Positions 12,953 through 21,350 of a stretch of DNA of 24,000 bases are shown one piece after another. Positions within the stretch are counted from its first letter, which is position 1, and each line of letters starts with the position of its first letter. The notes below the pieces were generated by a model. That model was not told the DNA's origin. It ran no database searches and worked only from the letters and a program-made list of their open reading frames with translations. Made by a program: the position numbers and the translations under genes. The stretch is from an uncultured Chloroflexia bacterium (GTDB lineage Bacteria > Chloroflexota > Anaerolineae > Anaerolineales > UBA4823), in NCBI GenBank assembly GCA_963777935.1, contig CAVZSL010000006.1:317287-341286 (forward strand), read 5' to 3'.

Positions 12953-13245
12953 AGGTTATCCTTTCAGGTAATAAATGCTGCCAAATACCGCTATAGTAAT
13001 TTTACTCCTATCGAATAAGGGTTTCATACCCAGACTTTTGATAGGTTAAACTACCTTCACAGGAATCTGGGATCTATCTATATTTCTAAAATCCTCATAA
13101 AATCATTTGCTGCAGTAAGTTTTGCCTTTGGCTGGTTGAGCTGAACCAAGGATGGTGGGATTATCCGAGGAGGAGAGATCGCTACTGATTCCCTAATAAC
13201 CGTCTGGATACCATGATCTGCTGATGAACATCAGCTCGGGTAAGA

Positions 13246-14082: not shown

Positions 14083-16692
14083 ATGTCTCCTCAGCTGCTG
14101 GTCACAAAACTTTATACCCCACCTGCACGTAAAGGTCTTGTCACGCGCCAGCGTTTGATCCAGTTGTTGAATGATGCTTGGCAGCAGGATAAAAAACTCA
14201 TCCTGGTCTCAGCATCGGCTGGTTATGGAAAGACCACTCTGGTGACCGAATGGTTGCGAGGCTTACAGGAAAAATCCGCATGGCTATCCCTGGACGAAAC
14301 CGATAATGATCCTACCAGGTTCCTTGCTTATCTCATCGCCGCGTTACAGATTATAGACAAAAGTATCGGGGATAAAACTCAGGCAATGCTCCAGTCACCC
14401 CAGCCGCTTCCACCTGAGGTGGTGCTGACCACACTTATAAACGAAATAGCCCTCACCCCCCAATCCTTTATCCTCGTACTGGACGATTATCACCTGATCC
14501 AGACCTTGCCAATCCACAAGCAGCTCGACTTCCTGGTGGAACACCTGCCTGCTCAAATGCACCTGGTTATCATTACGCGTGAAGATCCACCTCTTCCACT
14601 CTCCCGATTACGCGCCTGTGGTCAGATGGTCGAGATCCGGCAGAACGACCTGCGTTTCTTACCCGAGGAATGTGCAGATTTCCTACAGCGGATTATGGGA
14701 CTTAATCTCGAAACCGATGATATCACCGCTCTAGAACGCCGAACCGAAGGTTGGATCGTCGGTTTACAACTAGCTGCTATATCGATGCAAGGGCGAGATG
14801 ACCTGTCTAATTTCGTCGAGGAATTCACAGGCAGCAGCCACTACATTTTGGATTATTTAATCGAGGAAGTGTTTGAACAGCAAACACTTGAAACCCAGGA
14901 ATTCCTTTTGAAAACCTCGATCCTTAACCGCCTGTCTGGACCGCTATGCGATTTCGTTGTAGAGCGAAGAGGTAGCCACGAGCTGCTCGACCAATTTGAA
15001 CATGCCAACCTGTTTATCTTCCCACTTGACCAATCGCGTAGCTGGTATCGCTATCATCGCTTATTTGCTGAGTTATTACAGCAGCGCCTACACGCCATTG
15101 ATTCATTATCCGTAAATATGCTTAACAGTCGTGCAAGCCAGTGGTTTGCCACTGAGGGGTTCATCCCCGAAGCCATCCACCATGCACTGGATGCATCCGA
15201 TTGGGAGCAGGCAGCTAAACTTATTGCCGATTGCACGGTCCTAATGTTGAGAAGTGGTGAATTGTTGACGCTGATCGGTTGGCTCAAAGCTTTACCCAAT
15301 GAAGTAATCTTCACCCACCCGGAGCTGTGCCAAAACTATGGTTGGGCATTAACCCTCACCGGGCAGATGGAAGCTGCAGACATATATCTCTTACAAGCAG
15401 AGAAAATTGCCCGGGACGACGAGACTTTATTAGGACCTATCCTGGTCGCCCGGGCATACCACCTGCGCGTGTGTGGAAATGTTATTCAGGCGATTGATTA
15501 TGCTCAGCGAGCGTTATCGATCCTTCCCCAGTCGGATGCATTATCACGCGGCCTGGCTGCACTCACGCTCGGTCTGGCATATTGGAATCTGGGAGATTAT
15601 CAAGAATCAGAACGGGCATTTATAGAGGTTGAGCGCGCTGCTCAACAGTCAGGAAACAATTATGCCCGCATGACCGCTCGCTCATACCTGGGGAACATCC
15701 AGGCAGTTTATGGACATCTCCATAAGGCAGCTGAGTTGTGCCAACAGGTAATCCAATCGGGAGGGCAATCACCATACGTTGCTCCTGCCCATATTGGGTT
15801 AGCAGCACTTTATTATGAGTGGAATCAACTGGACCAGGCCTCTCAAGAGGCCCAAATTGGGATCGACCAGAGCCAGCGCACGGGCAATCCACTGATCTTA
15901 TGTGATGGCTACCGTATCAAAGCAGTCATATATCAGGCACTTGGCAATCCTGAGGTTGCCCTGTCGACGCTTAAAAACGCCGACCAGCTGGTTCTCAACC
16001 AGCTGGTTTCTCCACTCGCCCGTTTACGCATTGCTGCCTGCCATGTTCAGGTTGCACTGGCACAGGATAATCACACAGCGGCTCAGTTTTGGGCAGAACA
16101 GGTGACCGATCCATCTGGTGCATCTTTATATGATCCCTGCCTTGGTCTCACTCCAATTCATATTTATCTAGCTCGTCACAAGAAAAAAGAAGCCGCACAA
16201 AGGCTAAGCGAGCTCTACAATATCGCCTCGCAAAAAAGCTGTGGTGCTGGGATGGTTGAAATCCGTCTACTACAAGCCATGGCAGCGGAATCTCCACAGG
16301 GTGCACTCCAGTTTATGAAGAAAGCCTTAAAAATGGCACAACCTGAAGGCTTCATCCGCATTTTCGTTAATCAAGGGGAACCGGTGAAGAAACTGCTAGA
16401 AAGATTAAAATCCCAAGGGGGCGACATGAAAGAGTATATTCTTACCCTGCTCGCTTCTTTTGGGGAGACCAGCAAGGTATCAGCCTCACGGGGGTTGGTT
16501 GAACCCTTGAGCGAGCGTGAGCTGGATGTATTACGCCTCCTGGAGCAAGGATTGTCAAATGGGGAGATTGCAAGGCGTTTGGTGGTTACCACTGGAACAG
16601 TAAAAAGCCATGTCCACAACATTATTAATAAGCTGGAGGTGAGTAACCGCGCTCAGGCAGTTGTACAGGCAAAGGCGCTAAAGCTGATATAG
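14083..16692 (+). CDS. LuxR-family transcriptional regulator, MalT-like large ATP-binding (LAL/STAND) type
   Basis: 869 aa. N-terminal P-loop SASAGYGKTTL and Walker B-like FILVLDDYH. The central region is helical and TPR-like. The C-terminal LuxR HTH is LSERELDVLRLLEQGLSNGEIARRLVVTTGTVKSHVHNIINKLEVSNRAQAV. Confidence 0.9.
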   Translation: MSPQLLVTKLYTPPARKGLVTRQRLIQLLNDAWQQDKKLILVSASAGYGKTTLVTEWLRGLQEKSAWLSLDETDNDPTRFLAYLIAALQIIDKSIGDKTQAMLQSPQPLPPEVVLTTLINEIALTPQSFILVLDDYHLIQTLPIHKQLDFLVEHLPAQMHLVIITREDPPLPLSRLRACGQMVEIRQNDLRFLPEECADFLQRIMGLNLETDDITALERRTEGWIVGLQLAAISMQGRDDLSNFVEEFTGSSHYILDYLIEEVFEQQTLETQEFLLKTSILNRLSGPLCDFVVERRGSHELLDQFEHANLFIFPLDQSRSWYRYHRLFAELLQQRLHAIDSLSVNMLNSRASQWFATEGFIPEAIHHALDASDWEQAAKLIADCTVLMLRSGELLTLIGWLKALPNEVIFTHPELCQNYGWALTLTGQMEAADIYLLQAEKIARDDETLLGPILVARAYHLRVCGNVIQAIDYAQRALSILPQSDALSRGLAALTLGLAYWNLGDYQESERAFIEVERAAQQSGNNYARMTARSYLGNIQAVYGHLHKAAELCQQVIQSGGQSPYVAPAHIGLAALYYEWNQLDQASQEAQIGIDQSQRTGNPLILCDGYRIKAVIYQALGNPEVALSTLKNADQLVLNQLVSPLARLRIAACHVQVALAQDNHTAAQFWAEQVTDPSGASLYDPCLGLTPIHIYLARHKKKEAAQRLSELYNIASQKSCGAGMVEIRLLQAMAAESPQGALQFMKKALKMAQPEGFIRIFVNQGEPVKKLLERLKSQGGDMKEYILTLLASFGETSKVSASRGLVEPLSERELDVLRLLEQGLSNGEIARRLVVTTGTVKSHVHNIINKLEVSNRAQAVVQAKALKLI

Positions 16693-16726
16693 GTAACCTG
16701 TCCGCCGGATGATGAACAAATCCCAT

Positions 16727-16759
16727 CCCCGTTCCGCAAAGGAGCGGGGGGTTCGTTTT
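16727..16759 (+). terminator. Rho-independent terminator after the LAL regulator gene
   Basis: CCCCGTTCC (16727..16735), loop GCAAA, GGAGCGGGG (16741..16749), with one G-U pair, followed by GGTTCGTTTT. Confidence 0.65.
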
Positions 16760-16760
16760 A

Positions 16761-16803
16761 AATCTATCCTCTAATCTATCTTTGGATAGATGACAATCTA
16801 TCT
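16761..16803 (+). promoter_or_regulatory. Cluster of four phased heptamer boxes ATCTATC/GATAGAT (candidate activator/operator sites)
   Basis: ATCTATC at 16762..16768, 16774..16780 and 16796..16802, and inverted GATAGAT at 16785..16791. Start-to-start spacing is 12, 11 and 11 bp. Boxes 2 and 3 form the perfect palindrome ATCTATC-TTTG-GATAGAT. A fifth GATAGAT lies at 17398..17404, upstream of the second membrane-protein gene. Confidence 0.5.
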
Positions 16804-16824
16804 GGTTGAGCTATATGATATAGA
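16796..16824 (+). promoter_or_regulatory. Candidate promoter of the membrane-protein operon (extended -10)
   Basis: TGaTATAGA at 16816..16824. The expected -35 position (16796..16801) coincides with heptamer box 4. The ATG lies about 42 nt downstream and is preceded by GAGGAG. Confidence 0.35.
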
Positions 16825-16865
16825 CACAATCAAAATAGTTAAAAACGCCAAAAGAGGAGAATCAA

Positions 16866-17348
16866 ATGAACAGCACCGTAGATCTTCAAAATGCCACTTC
16901 TAGTAATGAACAAAGCAACAAAGATCAGTATCAGGTAAAAGTCAACCAGTATATGGCTAAGCAACCAGGGATCGTCCGCGGACTCCATACGATATTGCAG
17001 GTCGTTTTTCTGATCGCCATCGTACTTGCAACCATCTTTTTCGCAGTGGCTCTCTACTACACATTTGTCTGGATCTTTACCGGAGCACTGACCAAACTCG
17101 ATGATGCCTGGGTTGACTATGGATTGAGTATGTCGTTCCTGGCATTCCCACTGGGTCTGGACTCGATGCTCACCCGCATCTTCCCTTCAGCCATTTTCCC
17201 ACCCTCACTTTATCGGTCCACCAAGCCAATCGCCTTCATGACAGGCATTGGCGCCTTCTTTGCCGGCTTTGGGATTATGTGCGCAGGTGCTCCAGGTGCA
17301 GTCCACATGGTTGACCTGGTATCACAGGCCATCCAGAAACTATTTTAG
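16866..17348 (+). CDS. Hypothetical small membrane protein (paralogue A)
   Basis: 160 aa. Polar S/N/Q-rich N-terminus, then QYMAKQPGIVRGLH followed by a TM helix, plus 2 further hydrophobic segments. Good SD. No family recognised. Confidence 0.65.
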   Translation: MNSTVDLQNATSSNEQSNKDQYQVKVNQYMAKQPGIVRGLHTILQVVFLIAIVLATIFFAVALYYTFVWIFTGALTKLDDAWVDYGLSMSFLAFPLGLDSMLTRIFPSAIFPPSLYRSTKPIAFMTGIGAFFAGFGIMCAGAPGAVHMVDLVSQAIQKLF

Positions 17349-17358
17349 GCGCTATTAC

Positions 17359-17384
17359 GAAGCCTGGTCTCCGGATCAGGCTTC
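17359..17384 (+). other. Intercistronic hairpin (possible partial terminator/processing site)
   Basis: GAAGCCTG (17359..17366) / CAGGCTTC (17377..17384), 10-nt loop, followed by ATTTCCATTC (weak T-tract). Confidence 0.3.
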
Positions 17385-17446
17385 ATTTCCATTCTGCGAT
17401 AGATAACGCTCAAACCGAATTCTCACTAAAACGAAAGGTGGAGACC

Positions 17447-18049
17447 ATGGAGAAAACAACCGTACAAAATGTAGCAACACAGAATACAAGCTCTCAACAA
17501 TTAAAAACCCAGCTTGCCAGTTACCTTGAGGAACAGCCTGAAAACATTCAGTCGTTTCATCGTGTAATGAAGGTTCTGGAAAGCATCGCCCTCGGCATCA
17601 TGATCATTATCTTCATCACCGCCATGGTGCTGTCCTTTATGTGGAAAACCATCCCTGTAGGAGTCATCCCCGCCACATGGTTCCTCCTGCCAACAAGCGT
17701 AGCAGGTTTAATGCTACTCATCGCCGTGCATACCCTAATCCTGCACGCCTATCCCCCAAGCAACCTTTACAGCATTTACCACGGTGGATCCCCCGCCCGT
17801 TCGTTGGGGAAATATCAACAGTTCGTCACTGGTAAAGACGCGGATACTCAAGCCTTGATATTGATCCTGGTGGCACTGATCGTGGGTGCATTTTTTGCCA
17901 TCTTCGCCTGGGCATCCTGGACGGTTAACTGGGCGATTCTTACCCCCATGATCAATATCTCGGGGGTAGCATTGGGGATCGCCATCGCTGTGGGCATTGT
18001 GGGTGGCATGATTCTCAAAACTTATCAGAAACTCTCCAAATCTCGCTGA
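17447..18049 (+). CDS. Hypothetical membrane protein (paralogue B)
   Basis: The ORF track starts at GTG 17438. ATG 17447 with AAAGGTGGAG upstream is the more likely start. About 4 TM. It shares with paralogue A the layout of polar Q/S/T-rich N-terminus, SYLEEQPENIQSFH, TM, and a PPSxLY motif (YPPSNLYS versus FPPSLYRS). Confidence 0.65.
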   Translation: MEKTTVQNVATQNTSSQQLKTQLASYLEEQPENIQSFHRVMKVLESIALGIMIIIFITAMVLSFMWKTIPVGVIPATWFLLPTSVAGLMLLIAVHTLILHAYPPSNLYSIYHGGSPARSLGKYQQFVTGKDADTQALILILVALIVGAFFAIFAWASWTVNWAILTPMINISGVALGIAIAVGIVGGMILKTYQKLSKSR

Positions 18050-18108
18050 ACTTGGTTGGTTTCTGCCCTCAAGACAAGCAATAGAATAAAAATGAAAGGA
18101 GTCTTATC

Positions 18109-19644
18109 ATGGCAACAGAATCTATCAATAGATACCCACTGCGTGACCGTTGGTCATATCTCTGGCTGGGTATCGCGGCAGTTCTGCTTGTATTCACTTA
18201 TGGAATGTATCGCAATCCACTGGCTGCTTTATTGGCGCAGGTTTTCCTTATTCGCTTCCTACGCAGTCGAAAGATCGGTGTAGGCTATCTTCTGATCTGC
18301 CTGACGCTGGTGGTGGCTAATATAATCTCCTGGTGGAACCTCATGCCGACGAACCCCATCCTGGTTCGCATTATTATGGGGTCCATTTTTGGATTGTTAT
18401 ACTCTATTCCCTTCTTGCTGGACCGTGTGTTGGTGGGTCGCTTTAGTGGATTTGCTACTACTCTGGTCTTCCCTTTCGCCAGATCTGCGTTCGAGTTCCT
18501 TACCCTGTGGCCTAATCCGCTGGGTACATACGGCGCACTGGCCTACAGCCAGTTCAGCAGTGTGTATCTCACCCAATTGGTGTCGATCACAGGGTTATGG
18601 GGTGTCACCTTCCTCGTTTCATGGTTCGCCTCGACGGTCAATTGGATCTGGGAAGAGGGCATGGCCTGGCAACGCATCCGCCGTGGTCTGGCAATTTTCG
18701 CTGGCGTGACACTGGTTGTTTTGCTGTACGGCATGGTTCGCCTGACCTATTCTCAACCTCAGCCCGGAAGCGTGCGCATCCATGGGATCGTCGAGACCGA
18801 CTATACTCGCTACGATTGGGATACCAAGATCTGGCCTTTGAGTAAGACTGACCCTGAGGCTTTCAGAGCCATGATGACCCCCGTTTACGAGCGCTACTTG
18901 CAGGCTACCATCCGCGAAGCCCAGGCTGGAGCCCAGATTGTTGTATGGCCAGAAGTGGCTGCCGAAGGCTTCCGCCAGGATTTAGATGCAGTACTCTTGC
19001 AAGCGCAGGAAATCGCCCGTCAGGAAGGCATCTACCTGGCAGTGGGGTTGAACGTGATCAGCCCAAATTCGAACCCCGAAGGGGAGAACAGGCTTGTGAT
19101 AATCGACCCGCGTGGCGAAATTGTCATAAACCAACTCAAGTATGGCTGTATGGCTTTTAACATGTACGACTTCGAGATTCCAACTGTCAACACACCTTAC
19201 GGCAGGCTGGCTGGCGTGATTTGCTGCGACCTCGATTTCCCATTTGTCATCAGGCAGGTGAGCCAAAAAGGCATTGACATTCTACTGGTTCCTAGCTTCG
19301 AACCGACAACGGCAAACATCACTGCGCATTCGCAGATGGCTCCTTTCAGTGCCATTGAAAACGGCGTGTCAATCTTCCGACCTACGAGCATGGGAATCTC
19401 GCTCGCCATCGATCCATACGGACGCATCCTGGGCTCCATGGATGCCACGCGTGTTGACCAGCGCGTATTTGTGGTGCAGTTGCCCAACCACCATGTTCAT
19501 CCCGTCTATTCTGTGGTTGGTGATCTGTTTGGGTGGTTGATCGTAGTTGGTTTTGTGGTTATCGTGGGCTGGGCAATCTTCAGTAACCGCAAATCCCGAG
19601 CAGAAACAACTAGTTCTACAGGGCCACAGCCTCCATCTGCATAA
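18109..19644 (+). CDS. Lnt-like membrane-bound carbon-nitrogen hydrolase (apolipoprotein N-acyltransferase family architecture)
   Basis: 511 aa. The N-terminal ~220 aa are polytopic. The C-terminal CN-hydrolase domain carries an E-K-C triad context: IVVWPEVA, NQLKYG, AGVICCDLDFP. A final TM helix follows (WLIVVGFVVIVGWAIF). AAAGGAG SD. Confidence 0.78.
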   Translation: MATESINRYPLRDRWSYLWLGIAAVLLVFTYGMYRNPLAALLAQVFLIRFLRSRKIGVGYLLICLTLVVANIISWWNLMPTNPILVRIIMGSIFGLLYSIPFLLDRVLVGRFSGFATTLVFPFARSAFEFLTLWPNPLGTYGALAYSQFSSVYLTQLVSITGLWGVTFLVSWFASTVNWIWEEGMAWQRIRRGLAIFAGVTLVVLLYGMVRLTYSQPQPGSVRIHGIVETDYTRYDWDTKIWPLSKTDPEAFRAMMTPVYERYLQATIREAQAGAQIVVWPEVAAEGFRQDLDAVLLQAQEIARQEGIYLAVGLNVISPNSNPEGENRLVIIDPRGEIVINQLKYGCMAFNMYDFEIPTVNTPYGRLAGVICCDLDFPFVIRQVSQKGIDILLVPSFEPTTANITAHSQMAPFSAIENGVSIFRPTSMGISLAIDPYGRILGSMDATRVDQRVFVVQLPNHHVHPVYSVVGDLFGWLIVVGFVVIVGWAIFSNRKSRAETTSSTGPQPPSA

Positions 19645-19719
19645 TGAGTTGGGTGCTGCATGTGTTGAATGGAACTGCCCGCACCAACTTGTCAATACCA
19701 TATCTATGGGAAGTGAAAA

Positions 19720-19947
19720 ATGCTTCAAATTGAGATCCATCTTAAGGGAAAAATAAACCAGCAGTGGTCAGGATGGTTTGACAGCCTAACATACAGCTTA
19801 TCCGGTCACGATGAAACGGTTCTTACTGGTATTGTGGCAGACCAGGCGGCATTGTATGGGATTATTTCCCATTTGCGCGACTTGGGTTTACCACTGATTT
19901 CAGTCAGCAGTAAGGAAATTAAGGAGAATTCACATGAACGCAACTAA
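19720..19947 (+). CDS. Small conserved hypothetical protein (paralogue 1 of 2; 'LTGxVxDQxALYxxIxHLRDLGLxLIS' family)
   Basis: 75 aa. About 40 of the first 64 residues are identical, by hand alignment, to the 21129..21350 product. The 3' end overlaps the following hydrolase gene by 14 nt. Confidence 0.7.
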   Translation: MLQIEIHLKGKINQQWSGWFDSLTYSLSGHDETVLTGIVADQAALYGIISHLRDLGLPLISVSSKEIKENSHERN

Positions 19948-21010
19948 TGACCAGAATGATATCCAGGATAAATCAATTGGTAAACGGCACGGTTGTCTGG
20001 GTTGTTTGGGACGTGGCGCCATCGGATTGTTGATTTTCTTGGTGGTTATTTTGGTGGCAGGGTCAACCTATCAAACCATGGCAAGTGCCAGTGATTTAAG
20101 GAAATATCCGCCGCCGGGTGAATTATACGATGTGGGAGACTACCGGTTACACCTCTTTTGCACTGGAGAGGGCAGTCCAACCGTGATCCTGGAAGCGGGA
20201 GCGGGGAATCCGTCCATCGGTTGGTCCGTGGTGCAGAGTGGCGTGGAAGGATTTACCCGCGTTTGCTCTTATGACCGCCCCGGATTTGGCTGGAGCGATC
20301 CGGCCAACAGCCCACTTTCCAGAGAGCAGGTAGCTTCCCTCTTGCACGATTTGCTCCAAACTGCAGATGTCTCCGGACCGTATATCCTGGTTGGGCATTC
20401 TGCGGGAGGCGAGTACATTCGCGCATATGCCAGGCAGTATCCCTCCGAAGTGCTTGGAATGGTATTTGTGGACTCCTCGCATGAGAGCGAAACCCTGCGT
20501 TACCCAGCCAAATTCATGAACTTTAACCAATATCAGCTAATGACACAGAAAATATGCCAATTCCTCTCACCGGTTGGAACGGTACGCCTGATCAAACTCT
20601 GGAGCACTTTCCTCCCTGAGACGCTGACATCGACGGACATCGGGAAGGCAGTGACTTCAACCTTATACCGAAGCGGGTATTGTAAAGCGGCTTATGCTGA
20701 AGCATCCGTTTTGGGATCGCCTGGCCAGTCTGGAGAGCCTGGTAGTTTAGGAGATTTACCATTAATCGTACTTTCGGCTGGTGCTTTCAACGATAATATA
20801 CCCAGCTCTGTGGTAACAGCCATGGGCGGCTCAGATGTGCTTGCTGAGGTCGTCAAGGTTCATGATGAAATCCAACAGGAATTGGTAAACTTATCTAGCG
20901 CGGGCAAGCTAGTTGTCGCTGAGAAAAGCGGACATGAAATTCACTGGTACCAGCCTGAATTGGTAGTTAATGCAATACATACAGTCTTAGAACAGGTGCG
21001 GAACAAGTGA
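19934..21010 (+). CDS. Membrane-anchored alpha/beta-fold hydrolase
   Basis: 358 aa. TM anchor AIGLLIFLVVILVAG, nucleophile elbow LVGHSAGG, C-terminal SGHEIHW. AAGGAG lies 7 nt before the ATG. Confidence 0.85.
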   Translation: MNATNDQNDIQDKSIGKRHGCLGCLGRGAIGLLIFLVVILVAGSTYQTMASASDLRKYPPPGELYDVGDYRLHLFCTGEGSPTVILEAGAGNPSIGWSVVQSGVEGFTRVCSYDRPGFGWSDPANSPLSREQVASLLHDLLQTADVSGPYILVGHSAGGEYIRAYARQYPSEVLGMVFVDSSHESETLRYPAKFMNFNQYQLMTQKICQFLSPVGTVRLIKLWSTFLPETLTSTDIGKAVTSTLYRSGYCKAAYAEASVLGSPGQSGEPGSLGDLPLIVLSAGAFNDNIPSSVVTAMGGSDVLAEVVKVHDEIQQELVNLSSAGKLVVAEKSGHEIHWYQPELVVNAIHTVLEQVRNK

Positions 21011-21128: not shown

Positions 21129-21350
21129 ATGCTAAATATCGAGATTCGCATTAAAGGGCAGATTATCAATCCGGGATCGGGATGGCTCAACAACTTGACA
21201 TTGAGTCATTCTGACCCGGATGAAACCATACTCACAGGAATCGTTTCAGATCAAATTGCCTTGTATCAGTTAATAACCCATTTACGAGATTTAGGCTTAT
21301 ACCTGATATCGATAAGCAGTGAAGACTTAATGGATCAAAATCCACCCTAA
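21129..21350 (+). CDS. Small conserved hypothetical protein (paralogue 2 of 2)
   Basis: 73 aa: MLNIEIRIKGQIINPGSGWLNNLTLSHSDPDETILTGIVSDQIALYQLITHLRDLGLYLISISS. It is collinear with the 19720..19947 product. Confidence 0.7.
   Translation: MLNIEIRIKGQIINPGSGWLNNLTLSHSDPDETILTGIVSDQIALYQLITHLRDLGLYLISISSEDLMDQNPP

Follow-up and report, generated by a model that had tools for sequence, protein, structure and literature searches.

A predicted four-box operator between a MalT-type regulator gene and a membrane-protein operon in an uncultured Anaerolineales lineage

The locus, the box array and the promoter

The window (the whole 24,000-nucleotide stretch of DNA analysed here) contains the gene for an 869-aa regulator of the LAL/MalT family of STAND proteins, which is followed on the same strand by its own intrinsic terminator, an array of four short repeats, and a block of genes that starts with two membrane proteins (Table 1). 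A Pfam search started with the 869-aa protein identifies AAA_16, TPR_MalT (PF17874, 5.8e-59, residues 452-777) and GerE (PF00196, 5e-18, residues 808-862), and residues 5-413 are similar to the NOD-arm structure of Escherichia coli MalT (8bob_C, E 2.6e-56), with a GYGKTT P-loop and an ILVLDD Walker B motif. The protein thus contains all three modules that are characteristic of the LAL family, namely the NOD, the TPR sensor and the C-terminal LuxR/GerE HTH domain. The score against the NCBIfam MalT equivalog NF003420 is 440.1 bits, below the cut-off of 537, so that the protein represents a relative of MalT rather than MalT proper. The solved HTH domains nearest to that of the 869-aa protein are those of VraR, LiaR and NarL (E 1e-10 to 1e-13). 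No autoregulatory site was found upstream of the LAL gene.

The first two genes of the downstream block encode membrane proteins of 160 aa and 203 aa that are paralogues of each other (E 1.9e-5); Pfam and NCBIfam searches assign neither of them to a family. The gene order of the block is kept in relatives, and we infer that it is co-transcribed from the 160-aa gene to the alpha/beta hydrolase gene. A terminator-like hairpin (17359-17384) directly 3' of the 160-aa gene may lower read-through into the 203-aa gene; relatives have it too, with compensatory changes. The 75-aa protein of the block belongs to a group of small proteins (about 75-100 aa) that share the motif ...TGxVxDQAALxGxxxxLRDLGLPLxSV and have no Pfam or NCBIfam match. 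Such proteins are encoded twice in the window (19720-19947 and 21129-21350), in two other loci (L080:2337-2615 and L082:2107-2337), downstream of the LAL gene of locus L090, and as the first gene past the boxes in the paralogous LAL family B described below. They recur in LAL-controlled blocks and may represent a regulator-associated partner.

Table 1. Features of the regulator-operon junction and of the downstream block (positions in the window; box positions also relative to the predicted transcription start)
Feature	Position	Strand	Remarks
LAL/MalT-family STAND regulator gene	14083..16692	+	869 aa; NOD ATPase, TPR_MalT sensor, LuxR/GerE HTH
Intrinsic terminator of the regulator gene	16726..16759	+	hairpin 16726-16750 and T-run; terminator scan
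Box 1	16762..16768	+	ATCTATC, direct, -64..-58
Box 2	16774..16780	+	ATCTATC, direct, -52..-46; left arm of the core 7-4-7 palindrome
Box 3	16785..16791	-	GATAGAT (inverted box), -41..-35; right arm of the core palindrome
-35-like hexamer	16790..16795	+	ATGACA, 5/6 of TTGACA; promoter scan; 18-nt spacer to the -10
Box 4	16796..16802	+	ATCTATC, direct, -30..-24, within the promoter spacer
-10 hexamer	16814..16819	+	TATGAT, family consensus TAtAgT; promoter scan and alignment
Predicted transcription start	16826	+	A, 7 nt past the -10; inferred from the -10 position
Ribosome-binding site and first predicted target gene	16854..17348	+	GAGGAG (16854-59); 160-aa membrane protein, no Pfam/NCBIfam match
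Degenerate operator relic	17375..17415	+	contains a 'fifth' GATAGAT (17398-404); between the two paralogous membrane genes
203-aa membrane paralogue and rest of the block	17438..21010	+
Lnt-like CN-hydrolase	18109-19644	+
Small protein	19720-19947	+	75 aa
Alpha/beta hydrolase	19934-21010	+

The four repeats are copies of the heptamer ATCTATC, with start-to-start distances of 12, 11 and 11 nt. The 9-mer AATCTATCT is found at 16773-81 and 16795-803, around boxes 2 and 4; boxes 2 and 3 form a perfect 7-4-7 palindrome centred at -43.5 and ending at -35, and boxes 3 and 4 form an everted 7-4-7 repeat, with box 3 common to two overlapping palindromes. Apart from the positions relative to the start, these coordinates, spacings and symmetries had been described in the sequence-only reading of this DNA and are exact. 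That reading also judged the cluster to be non-random and proposed a genome search for further ones. The heptamer as such occurs 7 times in the window, an unremarkable number compared with the 3.4 expected, and 547 times in the 3.82-Mb genome (561 expected); the single copies of ATCTATC at 13072 and 18120 correspond to this background frequency. It is the clustering that makes the array notable: the genome search shows that the four-box array is the sole site in 3.82 Mb with at least three copies per 60 bp, against about 1.8e-5 clusters of that density expected by chance in the whole genome.

The array is interleaved with a predicted promoter. The promoter scan, which is independent of the alignment of 33 loci analysed below, identifies ATGACA, an 18-nt spacer and TATGAT. 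In the alignment, the T, A and final T of the -10 (TAnnnT) are each present in 31 of the 33 loci, GAC (16792-94) is kept in 33/33, and the candidate start, A16826, is an A in 28/33. Because the scan and the alignment agree, the -10, the -35-like hexamer and the start are placed as in Table 1. Box 3 overlaps the -35-like hexamer by 2 nt, and the distance from its end to the -10 is 22 nt in 31 of the 33 promoters of this family; the same distance separates an inverted heptamer from the -10 in three of four second-copy modules and in eight of eight family B promoters. Lying 22 nt before the conserved -10, box 3 ends at -35, with the predicted -10, not a mapped start, as the reference. The initial proposal was different, namely an extended -10 promoter TGnTATAGA with box 4 as its -35. 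The corresponding sequence, TGATATAGA, is present at 16816-24 but is not conserved beyond the closest relatives; outside this group TATAGA (16819-24) varies freely, and the conserved -10 is the TAnnnT five nt upstream, so that TATAGA was rejected as the -10 hexamer. Thus, box 4 is not the -35 element; it is located in the spacer, and it is box 3 that abuts the -35.

Conservation of the array and its link to the adjacent regulator

Homologous membrane-gene loci were examined in 10 genome and 35 metagenome loci. Among the genome loci are homologues from four same-genus genomes and from three genomes of other families, along with two more Chloroflexota loci from an exact-pattern scan, and the metagenome loci come from a scan that was seeded solely with the alignment of the 203-aa protein and not with the boxes. 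The pattern ATCTATC-N4-GATAGAT followed by GAC(A/G) is found just 5' of the first membrane gene in all loci with enough upstream DNA except three (G159/L054, L084 and L085). In all 31 assessable loci, i.e., those with a contig reaching far enough upstream, a LAL orthologue (30-81% identity) ends directly before the array on the same strand. The three box-less loci, by comparison, all lack an adjoining LAL gene, and in the G159 genome (94% complete) the operator-like pattern is found nowhere even with two mismatches allowed. Among 41 relatives, the pattern is present in five genomes of the same genus, namely those with the membrane genes, and in G025, where it is located at a different LAL gene. 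The sequence-only reading had tied the boxes to the adjacent LAL gene and had expected them at orthologous loci; they are present at all orthologous loci, and the comparative evidence (31 of 31, with box-less loci lacking the LAL gene) supports the tie.

The 33 distinct sequences from Anaerolineales genomes and metagenomes, which are relatives and so not statistically independent, align without gaps from box 2 to the -10. The information content amounts to 1.6-2.0 bits per column in the boxes, GAC and the -10, compared with 0.2-0.9 in the flanks and, likewise, in the interval between box 4 and the -10 (16803-16813). Within the boxes, the most conserved positions are T16763, A16766 and C16768 in box 1 (32/33 each), C16776, A16778 and C16780 in box 2 and G16785, A16786, T16787 and G16789 in box 3 (33/33 each), and T16797 (32/33), C16798 and C16802 (33/33 each) in box 4. 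In distant loci box 1 decays to TTATATC or AATAAAC. Complete second modules, with the same spacing to TATAGT, are found in more distant loci before another membrane paralogue or another membrane protein. A weight matrix derived from the other 32 loci, and so without the site in the window, assigns this site 69.2 bits, against 3.0 bits for the runner-up among the 7.6 million positions of the source genome. The four boxes, then, are a real, deeply conserved array on the promoter of the membrane-protein operon and a predicted site of regulator binding.

No wider regulon was found in the source genome, where the next weight-matrix match scores only 3 bits. Other 7-4-7 palindromes are absent from the source genome at zero mismatches, and matches with one or two mismatches are at the chance level. 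The assembly is a metagenome bin (92% complete, 8% contamination), so that the absence of further sites is provisional. The fifth GATAGAT reported in the sequence-only reading is indeed present upstream of the 203-aa gene, but roughly every second close relative has mutations in it, and it is part of a degenerate operator copy that ranks fifth among the 7.6 million positions with a score of only -9.4 bits; accordingly it was rejected as a working box. This decaying relic looks like a remnant of the operator from the tandem duplication to which the 160-aa gene would owe its origin; in G013, G019 and G002, only a gene of the 203-aa type is located directly behind the boxes.

The exact-pattern scan covered 596 Gb of genome contigs. 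As an 18-nt pattern was searched in a data set of this size, most matches are due to chance, and the real ones are Chloroflexota loci only. A one-mismatch core palindrome in G019 (C1:512854-512873, L105) has no -10 at the canonical distance and is probably a chance match as well. In G003, whose bin is 61% complete, box 3 reads GATGGAT and the LAL orthologue (L008, C12, 8177-10785, minus strand) aligns as three segments, each in a frame of its own (residues 1-61, 62-467 and 464-869), which suggests frameshifts and hence either a pseudogene or assembly errors.

Further evidence on the binding partner comes from the regulator itself. The recognition helix of the 869-aa protein is TVKSHVHN, and all box-linked LAL proteins retain a T-x-K-S/T-H-V-H helix, even at 30-40% overall identity. 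In the alignment with NarL, VraR and LiaR, the K-S/T-H-V-H residues fall on the helix that reads the DNA, and none of the other GerE-type HTH proteins of the source genome has the T-x-K-S/T-H-V-H helix. A second LAL protein from G025, a member of another genus (L104, C72, 2925-6436; 955 aa, 33% identity), contains the helix TVKSHVNH and is encoded divergently to a flavodoxin-like gene; the shared intergenic region contains TTCTATC-CTTG-GATAGAT-GACG, with the palindrome unit located exactly 22 nt before TACGAT. G072 has an identical match (C71:2799-2818), recorded as a pattern match only. The same palindrome at the second LAL gene of G025 indicates that the boxes follow the type of HTH domain rather than the membrane genes. 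Between the regulator gene and the array, a hairpin with a T-run is present at the same place in every orthologous locus, each time with a different sequence. On the comparative evidence of the exclusive linkage, the retained helix and the second LAL gene of G025, together with the covariation of helices and boxes described below, the array is almost certainly the docking site of the upstream MalT-type regulator.

Paralogous LAL families and similarity to known systems

LAL genes are strongly expanded in the genus, with several full-length copies per genome (e.g., C2:16056-18887, L090/L092, and C6:423059-425800, L091/L106, in G000; relatives in L093-L137). The helices and the box sequences differ in at least five other LAL families of the genus, whereas the promoter positions of the boxes do not; in each family, the boxes lie directly 3' of the regulator gene and at the same positions relative to TAnnnT, as determined from anchored position counts. 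These are TCACCAC/TCACATC/TCATCAC with the helix xRTHTK/QN (boxes at -63, -51, -42, inverted, and -28); ATCCCCA with TVRTHTKS (-64, -52, -41, inverted, and -29); CAACAC with TxKGHNRK (-64, -51 and -29); family B, TACACCT with AGGTGGT ending at -35, with TAKRHSIN (-72, -61 and -50); and TACAACC with TVKRHISN (-74, -62 and -50). Other LAL families, despite their different boxes, have ATGAC(A/G) at this position of the promoter as well. Family B, in which the core TACACCT-TT-AGGTGGT is of the NarL-like 7-2-7 type, has no -35-like hexamer. In the TCACCAC family the spacer box co-varies with the upstream boxes locus by locus (TCATCAC upstream with TCATCAT in the spacer, TCACATC upstream with TCACATC in the spacer), a pattern that would be difficult to account for if the boxes were not all read by a single protein. 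In yet another LAL family, with the helix TVHKHLKN (L126-L132, L135, L136 and, in G000, downstream of C6:361739), three ATACCC boxes precede a hairpin, GGGCCTGA...TCAGGCCC, with a T-run; the hairpin occupies the place of the -35 and the spacer, so that terminator and promoter apparently overlap.

The four-site layout with a spacer box recurs in several paralogous families. The window might show one instance of a promoter layout common to an expanded set of MalT-type STAND regulators in the Anaerolineales, although this is less likely than not: the boxes at about -63 and -51 would be direct, the third would be inverted with its end at -35, and the fourth, direct again, would lie at -28 to -30 between the -35 and the -10, with box sequences specific to each family that co-vary with the helix. 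If it is true, the families would be natural matched pairs of helix and box, suitable for deriving a recognition code of LuxR-type HTH domains and for constructing orthogonal switches.

Among characterized systems, the closest similarity is to MalT of E. coli and Klebsiella, which is built from the same modules (a NOD ATPase, a TPR-like sensor and a LuxR-type HTH domain; NOD homology with E 2.6e-56) and binds several short asymmetric boxes per promoter, with the proximal site at about -35 (PMC4381067, PMC7567727). At the locus described here, a short asymmetric box is repeated in both orientations (four boxes, 33 loci) and the proximal site ends at about -35 as measured from the predicted -10, so that the MalT-like geometry proposed in the sequence-only reading, with an array abutting the -35, is supported by comparative evidence (PMC7567727). 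A weak or absent -35 hexamer, another feature of MalT-type promoters, is not found; instead, the near-consensus hexamer ATGACA (5/6) is invariant, and there is an extra box at -30..-24 in the spacer. The box itself (ATCTATC, 7 nt, with 11-12-bp phasing) is unrelated to the MalT box GGGGA(T/G)GAGG, and, in place of mal genes, the predicted targets encode membrane proteins, an enzyme similar to Lnt and a hydrolase, which sets the system apart from MalT proper. MalT of Actinoplanes sp. SE50/110, which binds TCATCC-5 nt-GGATGA overlapping the -35, is similar in the 11-bp spacing of half-sites, in the 3' end of the site about 34-35 nt from the start, and in the activation of poorly annotated, non-maltose genes; it differs in using one palindrome before 17 start sites, as opposed to four boxes at one promoter per genome, as well as in box sequence and phylum (PMC7567727).

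Sites of the NarL/VraR/LiaR type also consist of 7-nt boxes in mixed orientations, and the paralogous family B even has the 7-2-7 arrangement. NarL itself (TACYYMT, 7-2-7) differs from the family in the window in that the latter has 7-4-7 sites and, according to Pfam, a regulator without a receiver domain. The computed alignment shows K-S-..-H here compared with K-V-..-K in NarL at the base-contacting positions. SARP activators, as far as they are described in the work cited in PMC11784345 (PimR/SARP-LAL), resemble the present system in phased heptamers on one face with an 11-nt period that extend past the -35 towards the -10, and SARP-LAL proteins contain a STAND module too; in SARP sites every repeat has the same orientation and is recognized by a winged helix of the OmpR type, whereas box 3 here is inverted and Pfam detects no SARP or BTAD domain in the 869-aa protein. 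MilO, a LuxR-family activator from Streptomyces, shares the LuxR-type HTH domain and needs several phased repeats at a single target promoter, but these are three 11-bp direct repeats, the site lies 142 bp 5' of the start, and the protein architecture is different (PMC11784345). A literature search for the motif returned nothing relevant, as judged by titles and abstracts.

Direction of control and implications

Given these similarities, the system could operate as follows, with a probability of roughly 0.6: an inducer-activated oligomer of the LAL protein would bind the four boxes on one face of the DNA and activate the promoter. The regulator gene ends at its own terminator, and the next 100 bp contain a predicted sigma-70-type promoter interleaved with the four boxes. 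By analogy with MalT, for which inducer- and ATP-driven multimerization leads to cooperative binding of multiple boxes and recruitment of RNA polymerase (PMC4381067), inducer and ATP would open the NOD and cause multimerization; the multimer would then present several LuxR-type HTH domains for cooperative binding. The boxes, being about 11 bp apart, lie on one helix face, and the oligomer would span -64 to -24 along it. The core site would be the box 2/3 palindrome ending at -35, the place where MalT sites are located: the position reported for E. coli MalT boxes is -34.5/-35.5, and the Actinoplanes palindrome, in which the half-sites are 11 bp apart, has its 3' end at a distance of 34.4 +/- 1 nt from the start (PMC7567727). 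Binding might assist RNA polymerase at a promoter with a sub-optimal 18-nt spacer, and the genes switched on would be those of the two membrane proteins and, probably, of the Lnt-like enzyme, the small protein and the hydrolase.

Two features run counter to a simple activator, namely the hexamer ATGACA, which is near consensus, in contrast to classical activator-dependent MalT promoters, and the position of box 4 between the -35 and the -10. Proteins bound between these two elements more often repress. Consequently, the main competing possibility is that the same LAL protein binds but that the effect of the array is chiefly repression, or a switch between two states; boxes 3 and 4, which flank the -35-like hexamer, would be occupied at rest and block sigma region 4, and re-registration of the protein onto boxes 1-2-3, driven by the inducer, would relieve the block or activate. 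A promoter with an invariant 5/6 hexamer and a good -10 might well fire unaided, and the overlap of box 3 with the hexamer by 2 nt, the spacer box, and the participation of box 3 in two overlapping palindromes all suit this possibility. Against it, the characterized MalT regulators cited here are activators (PMC7567727, PMC4381067), and family B, with the same proximal geometry but no -35-like hexamer, points to activator dependence. Furthermore, boxes 3 and 4 are centred at -38 and -27, approximately half a turn off the centre of the -35, so that sigma could take the other face and its co-occupancy would be geometrically possible. We consider repression or a switch of this kind unlikely. The position of the proximal site, as in MalT promoters, together with the lack of the hexamer in family B, favours activation over repression, by analogy.

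Alternatively, a different regulator encoded elsewhere (e.g., a NarL-type response regulator or a member of another family) could bind the boxes, with the LAL protein incidental or acting elsewhere. Several other GerE-type HTH proteins are indeed encoded in the genome, yet the LAL gene adjoins the array in 31/31 assessable loci, down to 30% identity, and the boxes are missing where it is missing; the K-S-H-V-H helix is present in no other HTH protein of the genome; the same palindrome accompanies a LAL protein with a similar helix beside unrelated target genes; and boxes co-vary with LAL helices across families. This makes another binding partner improbable. That no protein binds the array at all, and that it arose by chance, belongs to a mobile element or acts as a transcribed RNA, is extremely unlikely, as nothing was found in favour of it, whereas the chance expectation is about 2e-5, the array has no further copies in the genome, a terminator precedes the element and a conserved -10 follows it, conservation is box-shaped rather than helix-shaped, and, for an RNA element, there is no Rfam match.

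Thus, activation by an inducer-responsive LAL oligomer appears to be the best explanation for the array. If all four boxes were occupied alongside RNA polymerase, the geometry of activation would be that of an HTH array on one DNA face bracketing the -35, of which we know no example among MalT or LuxR-type activators. Likewise, we know of no description of a four-site layout with a spacer box for MalT-type activators. Chloroflexota and Actinomycetota have very large numbers of LAL/MalT-type regulators; the operators of only a handful of them are known to us, none from Chloroflexota, a phylum in which, as far as we are aware, gene regulation is almost unstudied. As judged from the sequence, the array is a new operator within a known regulator class. 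It provides a precise operator-promoter model for an uncultured Anaerolineales lineage, with a predicted one-operon regulon of envelope proteins without family assignment, and with several paralogous regulators that would use one site geometry with different boxes. Such a set may offer a route to a recognition code of HTH domains, to the prediction of regulator targets from sequence alone, and to potentially orthogonal ligand-controlled promoters.
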